A stretch of DNA of 63,922 nt, filler included, from Globobulimina sp. (taxonomy: Eukaryota): the NCBI GenBank assembly GCA_003354225.1. It is 22 parts of 22 records of this genome, joined end to end, with 100 filler letters (N's around TTAATTAATTAA, not from the genome) between each part and the next. Parts side by side here need not be neighbours in the genome. Positions count along the whole stretch, not along the records: positions 1 to 2,813 come from PIVH01004775.1; 21 more parts are not named here. One strand, 5' to 3'. The stretch's first letter is position 1; each line of letters begins with the position of its first letter. This document shows, piece by piece, positions 2,116 through 29,018 of this stretch. The position numbers and the translations under genes are program-made. The notes below the pieces were generated by a model, which worked only from the letters and a program-made list of their open reading frames with translations, did not search any database and was not told the DNA's origin.

Positions 2116-2419
2116 TGACTCAGGTGGGAATTAAACCCACATCGATGTGAATTGTGTCAATCAATGTTGTATTTATCATATTGCCCAATATGACTTGGAT
2201 TAAACGGTAGTTCTGTGCCAGTAGCGGTGTTTCATGGTCGTACATCAAATGTACTGCCTCTTACTATCTTTTCCGAGCATCAAAGAACATCACAATAAGG
2301 AATGTGAATACGTATTACAGAACACGTAGGCTTAGAGATGGTTGACATTGATTTGTAGATCGATGACAAGAAACGACTTTACGTCGCAGACACACACTCT
2401 ATGTTTGAGTTACTGAGTC
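2116..2419 (-). ncRNA. tRNA-like RNA gene candidate with a 225-nt structured insert in the anticodon loop
   Basis: On the minus strand: acceptor stem GACTCAG (2419-2413)/CTGAGTC (2123-2117) plus A, D stem ACTC/GAGT, anticodon stem TGTGT (2394-2390)/ACACA (2157-2153), and T arm GTGGG-TTTAATT-CCCAC. The insert spans 2159-2383. Confidence 0.6.
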
Positions 2420-2913: not shown

Positions 2914-5725
2914 CCAGTCAGATATTGGACGATTATACTAATTTATTGGCACAATGTTACAAAATGATAATTACATCAAATGATAATCGGTTAATAGAAT
3001 TATATGAGAAAATACTGAGCCTCGCACCGAAAATAATTTTAAACGAAAATAACCCGTGGAAGTGGCAAATGTTGAAAATCAGAAACAAAGTATACAATTC
3101 ATGCAAAATAAGATAAAAGCTTTCAGAGAATTAGATTTTGAGCAAATTATTAAAGCGGCTGCAACAAATAAATCAAAAAATAAATATAAGGCATTAAGCG
3201 GCGTTGAATTAGAGAATAAAATTAGTAAAATGCGGCAAAAACGAATTACGAAATACGCGAAACTTAATGATTTGAGTAAAGCGTATAAACAAACTGAATA
3301 TAAGCCGGCGATGGAAATTACACAGCAAAAAAAAGAAAAATGGCAAAGCAAATTTATTAAAATGAAAGAATATACAAAAAAGATTGAATACATTAATGGC
3401 TTTTATAAACACATTAAAGTGGATAAAAATATTGGAGTACTGGCAGTCCGGACCAACAATCTGCGTTTCACCATCAACAACTTATAAACGCAAACAATGA
3501 GGAATACAATAAATGGTTTATTAAATACATAGTTTGTAATAATCAATTGACTGACTTTCAAGTCATAAATATAATGACATCGAATGGGATACCGATTCCT
3601 AAGAAAGATCCATTAGATTTAAGGCCATTGATATTGAATAAAGTAAGGCCATTGAGATCGAGAGTTTGCCAGCAGTTCAACTTAAAAACCAGTACGGAAT
3701 GAATAAAAAGAATGCATTGAGCATAATTGTCCATTCTATGGATAAATTCATTGAATATGCAACACACAAAAACGATCATTATTTTGATACAAAGAAATTA
3801 AATCATTGTCAACCAAATAAAAATTGTGTACCAATCAAATTCAATTTAATGCAAAATAAGAAAGATAATATTAGAAAATGATAAGTTTACATTTGGCGAT
3901 GATGCACATATCAACGATGAGATTATAAATATGCTCTGTTGGGACAATTCTGATTTGGATAATATTAACATTTTGATGAAGGATGATATGGCAAATTTTT
4001 TTAATCGAATTTTAAGGAAACCGTCACTCAAAAATTTGAATATGAGAGCGCCAAATTTTTCTACAATATCGCGTACGTAAATTATAGTGCGCCGACTAAG
4101 GTAATTTTTAACGGAGAAATGCAGGAAATGTCCGATGGATTACACCAAGGAAATACAGTGACGAATATTATTGTCATTGTTAACGAGAGAGATATAATGG
4201 AATTAGTTGGCGATATGGCGGCGAATTAAACTACATTGACGATACAAACAAAGGCGATACAATACGTAAATGCATAATTAATCATTTATTAAAAAAGAAA
4301 ATTGGTATTAAATTTGCTAATAAGTTTAATAATAAAAAAACAGAAATTATATTGACAAATTATAGGAATAAATTGAATGATTCTACCAATCAATATTTCG
4401 CAAATTATAAATTTAAGATTTTGGAGAATTCGGAGTTTGAAATGCTTGGCGTACAACGTGGAAAAGGCAAATATAATAATATGATGAAGAAAAAATTAAA
4501 TAAAATGAATGATAAGATTGATATTATTAAATACATTGAGAGTGACTGGCACAAATATAAATTATTAAATTCATGTGAAAAATTTGAGAATTTGAACTAT
4601 TTTTTACAATGCAACGATAATATACCTGATATCGACGAAAATGGTAAATATGTGATTGGCGAAAACAATGAGTGGATAATTAACGCAGATAAAATACATG
4701 AAAAAATACTTAAGTCCGCAATTAATATACCAATCAATGATGAAACAAAGCAAATTTTTTCAATTGGAAAGGGTTTTGGAGGATTATGCATTCGCAGTAT
4801 TTCTAATTTAATCGCGCCAGCATACATTTCCTGTATCCATAACGTTGTTAAATTGCTATGGAATGATTTGAAAATTGAATTATTATTTGAGACTGACTTA
4901 AAAATTAGAAATAACATTGAAAGAGCAATTGGATGGAATAATTTTAATACAACAAAGAAATTTAATATTGATATAAATGCAGTTTTTCACAATTTAGATA
5001 ATTTGAACGTAAATGCGCACAAAAACGAAGAAAAAGAGTGCGACATTGAGATATTTGAAAGTATGTTAAAATTAGCAAATTTACGAATTGATTTACGAAA
5101 TTGACGTAGACGAAGAAAGAATACGAAAATAATGTTTTATATGATATTAATAGTAAATTTAAAATGAATTCTATGTCGTACGGCATTGAAAGTAAAATAT
5201 ACCATAAAATATTTAATAACGCAAATATTAGAACGAAAATTATGATGAACGCAAGAAGATCGAATAAAACCATGGCATTTTTAAATAATATCATTGGAAT
5301 TGATTGGTTGAATGAGATGTTTATGAATAACAATGATTGGAAATTATTGATTCGGATTTTATACGGATTGCCGTTAATTGATATAAATAAAAAGGTGATT
5401 TGCAACCAATGCCATCAACAGATTAAACACGAACAAATAATTGAACATATAAATAAATGTAGGTTTGGGATAATTTATTTGAAGCGGAATGTGGCAATGT
5501 TACATATGAAACTAAGTCAAGAAAAGTGGGCAAAGCAACGAAAAACCCGATATTTGGATTCATAATAGTATTGAATATGAGAAGGATAAATTTAGCAAAG
5601 TTATGTTGGATGTTATTATCACCGATATTTTTTGCAATGAAAATAAGATAAATACAGAGAATCAAAAAATTACACATTTTATGGCAGGTAAAATTGGAGA
5701 AAAGAGCAAATTAAATAAATACAAA
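2914..5725 (+). mobile_element. Degenerate non-LTR retrotransposon with RT and restriction-like endonuclease (CRE/NeSL/R2-type), frameshifted
   Basis: Read across frames: PIPKKDPLDLRPL, DDMANFFNRI, DGLHQGNTV, NYIDD (about 4230), GGLCIRS, zinc knuckle CNQC-x9-HxxxC, then KPDIWI...MLDV...EKSKLNKY, matching the PD-(D/E)xK RLE tail. Multiple stops and frameshifts. Confidence 0.8.
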
Positions 5726-5825
5726 NNNNNNNNNNNNNNNNNNNNNNNNNNNNNNNNNNNNNNNNNNNNTTAATTAATTAANNNNNNNNNNNNNNNNNNN
5801 NNNNNNNNNNNNNNNNNNNNNNNNN

Positions 5826-28454: not shown

Positions 28455-28946
28455 AGCAAATCTTTTTAGCAGTTAATTTTAATTTGTTTTGTTATACCAC
28501 AACTTATAATTTTATATTTGTAATGACTATGACTGTTGACCTATTCATGCAATATTTATTTTTATTTTTTTTTGTTTTTTAAATTTATGATTAATTTGAT
28601 TAGTCCAAGAAACATATTTTTTGCTGGATTCAAAATGGTCTCTTTGTTGTGTTTTTTTTTGTTCTTTTTTTTTCTTTTTTGTCGTATTTTTTAAGTTTTT
28701 TTTTAAATACGGATATTATTTGTATTCCTGATGAATTACATGAGAGTAAATACCAAAAACATCGTGTTTGATAAAACTACAAAACTGTCTTAGTTTAGGT
28801 TTTATTTTGTGTTTTTTTACAAATGTTTGCTTGTGTTTTGACAATTAATTTTAATTTTTGCATGTTTTGATTTTTTTATAAATATTTTTGTTGTTTCGCA
28901 ACTTAGATTGAAGTCACACTAAATGTAATGAAAACTTTTGAATTCG

Positions 28947-29018
28947 ACAATGTAAACAACGTTTCAATAACGTTTCGGATTTGCTGTTTTGTTATAGAAA
29001 CAACGTTGTTTACATTGT
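28947..29018. repeat. Inverted repeat at contig end
   Basis: ACAATGTAAACAACGTT and its exact reverse complement AACGTTGTTTACATTGT end the contig. Confidence 0.8.

Follow-up and report, generated by a model that had tools for sequence, protein, structure and literature searches.

The window analysed here (positions 1–63922) consists of 22 contigs of about 2.81 kb each, chained by N44-TTAATTAATTAA-N44 spacers (2814–2913, 5726–5825 etc.) across which features are unreadable. Since the unit described below lies within the first contig (1–2813), its real genomic context is 2.8 kb only. The plus strand of this contig carries a two-exon gene at 473–1850, with the stop codon at 1848–1850. Both exons match the Pfam family Homocysteine S-methyltransferase (E = 3e-17 and 7e-18), and exon 2 matches solved structures of betaine-homocysteine S-methyltransferase 1 with E = 3e-103. 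By this homology, the gene is an animal-type betaine-homocysteine S-methyltransferase (BHMT) gene. Its single intron (1005–1053, 49 nt, GT..AG ends) is absent from the BHMT contigs of the public runs X5, X6 and X7, which splice position 1004 to 1054. This suggests that these three runs hold cDNA, a nature that for X5 and X7 is deduced from the spliced BHMT, with none of the seven runs (four studies) listed as RNA. The skipping of a 49-nt GT..AG intron in the contigs also indicates that the DNA comes from a eukaryote with very short introns. Run X1 covers the whole first contig, including the BHMT intron, and probably stems from the source organism or one near it. The contigs of all these runs carry no strand, RNA-end or level information.

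Some minor features of the BHMT gene were seen alongside. The motif AATAAT overlaps its stop codon, and an X6 contig and an X5 contig (the latter about 10% different) end at 1845 and 1852, respectively, a weak hint of a very short BHMT 3′ UTR. In the X7 BHMT contig, 42 nt of exon 1 (832–875) are replaced by GGC, an in-frame change of 13 codons. X5 also holds BHMT-like contigs over 1054–1852 that are about 10–15% different (23/236, 25/172 and 30/282 letters), which suggests a second gene copy that has diverged, or a related organism in this run.

On the opposite strand, 266 nt past the BHMT stop codon, begins a unit of 304 nt (minus strand, 2419 to 2116) whose ends fold as a tRNA cloverleaf around a 225-nt middle (Table 1). 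No contig of runs X1, X5, X6 or X7 links it with BHMT. In the sequence as given, all four stems (7+4+5+5) pair perfectly, as the sequence-only reading had claimed, with 21 of 21 pairs being Watson–Crick. The perfection holds for that sequence but not for the runs: every covering contig (five of X1 and two of X5) has A at 2154, and A instead of G turns the pair G28–C42 into G-U, leaving 20 Watson–Crick pairs and one G-U. The 5′ strand of the anticodon-like stem lies within a TG repeat, and other pairing registers are possible there.

Table 1. Features of the cloverleaf-framed unit and its immediate surroundings in the first contig, by position along the window
Feature	Position	Strand	Remarks
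TATATA	2457–2462	−	38–43 nt 5′ of the cloverleaf; at the upstream border of the G+C island
Acceptor-like stem, 5′ strand GACTCAG	2413–2419	−	perfect pairing with 2117–2123
D-arm-like hairpin	2396–2410	−	2410–2407 with 2399–2396, ACTC/GAGT; loop AAACATA (7 nt), without G18 G19
Anticodon-like stem, 5′ strand TGTGT	2390–2394	−	pairs with 2157–2153
Hairpin GCGAC-GTAAA-GTCGT	2373–2387	−	includes the supposed anticodon GCG
Central domain, 225-nt 'insert' between the cloverleaf halves	2158–2383	−	ARAGORN places the 225-nt intron here
Variable spacer	2351–2371	−	X5 substitutions and indels at 2356–2367; mostly missing in the X7 loose end
Conserved core of the central domain	2187–2327	−	X7 contig 21: 6 other letters and 1 gap in 141 nt
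Anticodon-like stem, 3′ strand ACACA	2153–2157	−	2154 = A in covering X1/X5 contigs
Variable region, 12 nt	2152–2141	−	no arm formed
T-arm-like hairpin GTGGG-TTTAATT-CCCAC	2124–2140	−	stem 2140–2136 with 2128–2124; B-box-like, T at position 56
Acceptor-like stem, 3′ strand CTGAGTC, and discriminator A	2116–2123	−	discriminator = 2116
3′ module: trailer, acceptor 3′ strand, T arm, variable region	2097–2154	−	recurs in other contexts, X1/X5
T4, then A, then T6; Pol III terminator-like tract	2095–2105	−	begins 11 nt past the unit

The consensus of tRNAs has G18 and G19 in the D loop and T54, T55 and C56 in the T loop. Among these conserved hallmarks, G18, G19 and C56 are absent from the unit. The tRNA-like letters that its loops do hold are U8, A14, U33, a purine at 37, G53–C61, U54 and A58. 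The proposed U8, A14, A15/U48 and U54/A58 are present, and the loop letters and the 12-nt variable region, which forms no arm, are as described; the A19–U56 pair, however, holds only if position 17 is counted as a missing D-loop base. A second T-arm-like hairpin was seen at 2355–2371, within the variable spacer (altered in X5, absent from X7).

The chance occurrence of such a shape was assessed with our own split-cloverleaf scan, which called for an acceptor stem of 7 bp, a D stem of 4 bp with a loop of 7–11, an anticodon stem of 5 bp, a variable region of 4–21 and a T stem of 5 bp with a loop of 7, the insert being free within a span of at most 500. With both strands scanned, the window holds exactly one Watson–Crick-perfect case (2419–2117, minus). 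Six of 300 random windows of the same size, generated from a first-order Markov model of the window, held at least one perfect split cloverleaf (mean 0.02). When up to one G-U pair was allowed, the count rose to 37 of 300 (mean 0.147); this count is relevant because every X1 and X5 contig over 2154 reads A, not G. With unlimited G-U pairs, 25 cases were found in the real window against a random mean of 15.75. On these counts, the cloverleaf is moderately beyond chance only.

Gene finders gave a similar picture. ARAGORN at default settings called no gene in the window, and with introns of 0–400 nt allowed the unit was uncalled at thresholds of 100, 98, 96 and 94%. From 92% downwards it was reported as tRNA-Arg(gcg) with a 225-nt intron, one of three calls in the window. 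Shuffles also reach this level: in 20 trials, dinucleotide shuffles of the 22 contigs yielded 12 calls at 92%, spread over 9 of the trials. Two further calls at 92–94%, an 83-mer like tRNA-Val with weak AT stems (4531–4613, minus) and a 'tRNA-Gln' with a T-rich 301-nt insert (28593–28982, plus), look like chance. When the insert was removed in silico, the joined halves (79 nt) were called as tRNA-Arg at the 99% threshold and uncalled at 100%. With the stems fixed, 23 of 1000 randomised and 21 of 1000 permuted loop sets reached the same 99% level. Because only about 2% of altered loops do so, the real loops carry tRNA-like information that is independent of the stems (P ~0.02). The Rfam comparison proposed along with the initial description matched no family, tRNA included. 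At gathering scores nothing was found in the whole window, and a search of 346 bases around the unit up to E = 10 returned only junk matches, with no tRNA, group I intron, vault, SRP, RNase P, MRP or 7SK among them; the best box C/D match (E = 1.6) is on the plus strand. RNase P/MRP, 7SK, SRP, U3, telomerase RNA, spliced-leader RNA and box C/D RNA were considered by eye as identities for the unit and rejected, being without Rfam support and having candidate motifs that X7 does not keep.

The insert had also been described as structured in itself. The helices named for it exist, but its folding is no better than that of shuffles: the 225 nt reach −43.4 kcal/mol, the shuffles −43.18 on average (z = −0.06), and 97 of 200 shuffles are equally stable. 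For the whole unit, folding compared with shuffles gives z = −2.04 on the minus strand and z = −1.66 on the plus strand. In X5, an A>G change at 2345 breaks the end pair of the 9-bp helix (2159–2167 with 2345–2353) on the minus strand.

The composition of the unit stands out from its flanks, with a G+C content of 0.395 against 0.302 and 0.269; that of the BHMT exons is 0.40. Along the G+C profile there is a sharp rise near 2115 and a fall near 2455. The resulting island matches the cloverleaf 3′ end and continues for about 35 nt past the 5′ end, consistent with a leader. T4 is absent from the minus strand of the unit, as previously noted, and T4 (2105–2102) and T6 (2100–2095) follow it there; the plus strand has one T4 inside it, at 2269. 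A T4-free unit of this kind is not rare (P ~0.16 from 20000 shuffles). The consensus of box A is TRGCNNAGTGG and that of box B is GGTTCRANNCC. Compared with these by eye, the A box agrees at 4 of 9 and the B box at 8 of 9 specified positions, the B-box miss being the critical C56, and the two stretches lie about 260 nt apart. On the plus strand, 2438–2450 contains a B-box-like GGTTCG without a paired stem, in the 35 nt of raised G+C that separate the cloverleaf 5′ end from TATATA. A bacterial promoter and terminator scan was set aside as irrelevant to a eukaryote.

The unit has cDNA-like contig cover. Run X5, which bears another organism label and differs over BHMT in 8 of 949 letters, has contigs at 2126–2294 (one other letter) and 2265–2409 (seven other letters and four gaps), and the two jointly bridge both insert junctions unspliced. 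X5 contig 15 covers the D-arm-like hairpin to 2409, and none of its differences lies there among the five of seven that were listed. A contig of X7, which bears a third organism label, spans 2187–2327. No joint across 2158–2383, forward or backward, was listed in the four runs; mature tRNA is rare in contigs from ordinary libraries, so that this absence alone speaks neither for nor against a spliced product. X6 has no cover on the unit, a coverage hole that proves nothing. For the same reason, an isolated expression island was rejected, although 1881–2068 and 2445–2813 are depthless in X5, X6 and X7. The end of an X5 contig in adapter at 2409 was likewise dropped as an RNA end; contigs stop in adapter within coding sequence too (1795).

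Divergence between X7 and the window is 61 of 1098 letters in the BHMT exons. With nine synonymous changes among the 16 differences listed, this corresponds to a synonymous-site divergence of about 0.13, as a rough estimate. In the core of the unit, X7 differs in only 6 of 141 letters (~4%). The comparison points to constraint or, should the unit be a mobile element, to a recent origin. Past 2327, the X7 contig continues with letters that can be matched to 2343–2350 and 2372–2389, lacking about 15 and about 19 nt that are present in the window between 2327 and 2372. These gaps, together with the X5 indels, mark 2351–2371 as a variable spacer. Two differences bear on the strand, each preserving a pair only when the minus strand is read, whereas the X5 change at 2345 counts against that strand. 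Where the runs have A instead of G at 2154, the minus strand forms G-U but the plus strand A.C. The hairpin stem GCGAC/GTCGT has become ACGAC/GTCGT in the loose end of X7, so that the closing pair passes from G-U to A-U on the minus strand and from A.C to A-U on the plus strand; the loop of this hairpin changes from GTAAA to GTGCA with the stem retained.

The 3′ part of the unit is not confined to this locus. At least five X1 contigs overlap 2154, and X1 loose ends share a border at 2097, inside the T6 run, and have three different continuations behind 2154, 2155 and 2193, of which the one behind 2154 is present in X5 too. These overlaps and loose ends indicate that the trailer, acceptor 3′ strand, T arm and variable region recur in the X1 genome; the recurrence in X1 contigs is limited to 2097–2154 (up to 2221). 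The X1 word depth, which is not a copy number, falls from the 3′ end inward through 55, 19, 8.5 and 6.4. The entire cover at 2296 comes from two X1 contigs (depth 3.15 and 4.43), a pattern expected of two alleles. The other copies of the 3′ module would be either paralogous genes sharing the 3′ half or 5′-truncated retro-copies of a Pol III transcript. No copy of the unit was found in the other 21 contigs of the window, and the T-arm 13-mer, with up to two mismatches, was found once against 1.59 expected. No target-site duplication surrounds the unit: the best flanking repeat is an 8-mer, which was equalled or beaten in 137 of 500 shuffles. A DNA transposon was rejected for this reason and for the lack of a terminal inverted repeat longer than 7 bp. 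X1 word depth rises again at 2445–2538 (13.6 in the bin; 24.4 at 2473), which suggests that part of the AT-rich upstream flank also recurs elsewhere. A coding role was rejected as well, with stop-to-stop frames of only 46 aa (minus, 2120–2260) and 44 aa (plus), both of which contain indels in related X1 contigs. The minus-strand frame, 46 codons long, occupies the 3′ third of the unit, with its end in the 3′ strand of the acceptor-like stem. It is probably not coding, since related X1 contigs interrupt it with a deletion of 5 nt and an insertion of 1 nt.

We propose that the unit is a tRNA-derived or tRNA-mimicking, Pol III-type small non-coding RNA gene that is kept unspliced, and give this reading a probability of roughly 0.4. 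Between the two identities offered by the sequence-only reading, the tRNA-mimic ncRNA fits better than a tRNA-Arg(GCG) with a long intron. The tRNA-like loops, the G+C island, the T tract and TATATA, the cover of the junctions, the conserved core and the two pair-keeping differences together point to a unit on the minus strand. The pairings, the composition island, the contig cover and the low core divergence are observations; this strand, the polymerase, the RNA ends and any function we infer. The gene would lie in the 3′ flank of BHMT on the minus strand, starting near 2430 and ending near 2100. Its two ends would derive from or mimic a tRNA, with an acceptor-like terminal stem and D-, anticodon- and T-like arms, and the 225-nt central domain would replace the anticodon loop and stay in the RNA. 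Transcription would be of the Pol III kind, with the upstream TATA-like element and the weakened B-box-like T arm as putative promoter, and would terminate in the T runs at 2105–2095. The cloverleaf may serve as a scaffold for stabilisation or processing, with the conserved core as the presumed working part. More tentatively, we hypothesise a 'tRNA-scaffold' RNA: a lineage-specific, stable RNA of about 300 nt, made by Pol III, in which a complete tRNA frame of four arms with co-adapted, non-canonical loops permanently holds a conserved functional domain of 225 nt in place of the anticodon loop, and which belongs to a small family sharing the 3′ half. As a near variant of this tRNA-scaffold hypothesis, the unit may be a tRNA gene with the longest known canonical intron, retained because this intron would be a stable RNA in its own right.

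If the unit is real, it would represent a new architecture among tRNA-derived small RNAs, in which a whole cloverleaf frames a large conserved domain, and a natural counterpart of the tRNA scaffold that engineers use for RNA expression. It would extend the known distance between Pol III A and B boxes, or the known length of tRNA introns, in animals, and would provide a testable case of tRNA genes becoming new ncRNA genes or SINE-like families. If the shape arose by chance, it is useful as a calibration: with the insert length free, a perfect 21-pair split cloverleaf is expected in about 2% of AT-rich windows of 62 kb. The finding as a whole is worth following up, not yet established, and real as an observation, save that the insert is not demonstrably structured.

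Among known systems, vault RNAs have paired ends and a variable centre and are roughly 80–150 nt long. Their genes are of Pol III type 2 and share box A and box B with tRNA genes (PMC7904556, in excerpt). The unit is similar in its tRNA-like promoter remnants near the ends, its paired ends, its own central domain and its T-run terminator. However, it is 304 nt long and has no Rfam vault match, and a full four-arm cloverleaf is not a feature of vault RNAs. Its architecture resembles that of vault RNA genes and of a SINE master gene, but on the tests of membership it fails to group with either. Archaeal tRNA-Trp genes offer another likeness: a 65-nt intron with a bulge-helix-bulge nests a box C/D small RNA (PMC4090602, in excerpt), so that a functional small RNA, putative in our unit, sits inside the anticodon-loop insert. 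In contrast to these genes, the unit is non-archaeal, and no box C/D family matched it better than E = 1.6 (plus strand).

Chance is a serious rival because the case was selected among very many windows in a very large scan. On this reading, which we regard as somewhat less probable than an RNA gene, the stems have no role, and what is transcribed or constrained here is a different kind of non-coding sequence, for example a stretch of lncRNA, the UTR of an unseen neighbour or a repeat fragment. Cloverleaves in 6/300 (perfect) and 37/300 (one G-U) random windows and ARAGORN calls of equal level in 9 of 20 shuffled windows are consistent with it, as are the position of the anticodon stem in a TG/CA repeat, an insert that is not unusually stable and the lack of an Rfam match. 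Chance alone fits poorly with loops whose likeness to tRNA exceeds that of about 98% of random loops when the stems are kept, with the coincidence of the G+C island 3′ edge and the T runs with the cloverleaf 3′ end, and with two differences that retain the minus-strand pairs as G-U or A-U. Rather less probable is a SINE-like retroposon or other repeat copy of Pol III derivation, whose 3′ tail (2097–2154) is shared with 5′-truncated copies elsewhere. The cover of 2154 by at least five X1 contigs with at least three continuations, the left border at 2097 in a T run and the fall of X1 word depth from 55 to 6.4 inward from the 3′ end all argue for such an element. The unit also resembles tRNA-derived SINEs in its length (about 300 nt), in having sequence related to tRNA and a terminator of Pol III type, and in its recurring 3′ tail (PMC5786205, in excerpt); according to the same excerpt, SINEs are built from a small-RNA head and a tail shared with a LINE, with which the shared 3′ tail accords. 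Yet the tRNA-like parts of the unit are split between two ends 225 nt apart rather than forming a contiguous 5′ head, the body at 2296 consists of two X1 contigs that look like alleles, and neither a target-site duplication nor a copy in the other 21 contigs was found.

A working nuclear tRNA gene (GCG, Arg) with a record 225-nt intron at the canonical site, the intron perhaps persisting as a stable or circular RNA, is in our view improbable. The perfect stems with U8, A14, U33, purine 37, G53–C61, U54 and A58 favour it, and the joined halves miss the ARAGORN default by only 1%. Against it, however, neither the full unit nor the joined halves are called by ARAGORN at default, Rfam gives no tRNA match, and G18, G19 and C56 are missing from what would be a class I tRNA with a variable region of 12 nt. 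In eukaryotes, CGY codons are normally decoded by a tRNA with ACG (inosine) rather than GCG. The 5′ cut site would fall inside the GCGAC/GTCGT helix, no bulge-helix-bulge is apparent by eye, and the contigs are solely unspliced across both junctions, with no forward or backward joint listed. A self-splicing group I intron within a tRNA, of the kind known from bacteria and organelles, is so improbable that we give it almost no weight. Although an insert in the anticodon loop fits such introns, and 225 nt is a typical size for small ones, no Rfam match was found up to E = 10 even with 346 bases scanned, and the DNA is of nuclear type, beside a spliced animal-type gene. Among intron-bearing nuclear tRNA genes, Drosophila CR31905 has a highly conserved intron of 113 nt and yields a stable circular RNA (PMC4536317, in excerpt), which keeps the long-intron option alive. 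The unit is like these genes in the interruption of the anticodon loop, the conserved inner part and the T run after the gene (PMC4536317, PMC4090602, both in excerpt). Its insert nevertheless exceeds the 6–133 nt reported for eukaryotic tRNA introns in the excerpted source (PMC4090602), being about twice the longest given there.

The T arm was also compared with other sequence collections. A pattern scan for the T-arm stretch gave no hit in the collection of genome contigs or in viral contigs. A 20-nt T-arm stretch occurs at four loci in metagenome contigs (L001–L004), where the likeness extends over 21–45 nt only and ARAGORN finds no tRNA. Upstream of the T arm, the metagenome sequences and the 5′ half of the unit are not significantly alike: of 2000 shuffles, 90 scored as well for L003, 891 for L004, 1008 for L002 and 1850 for L001. 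A D-arm likeness to L003 seen by eye was dropped on these counts. L003 (1960–2045) and L004 (1440–1525) contain contiguous tRNA-like sequence, with an A-box-like TGGCTCAACTGGTGGAG and the T arm of the unit but no pairing acceptor stem, which is possibly a tRNA-derived repeat of another eukaryote. The presence of the T-arm 20-mer inside this tRNA-like sequence makes the T arm of the unit a plausible tRNA derivative.
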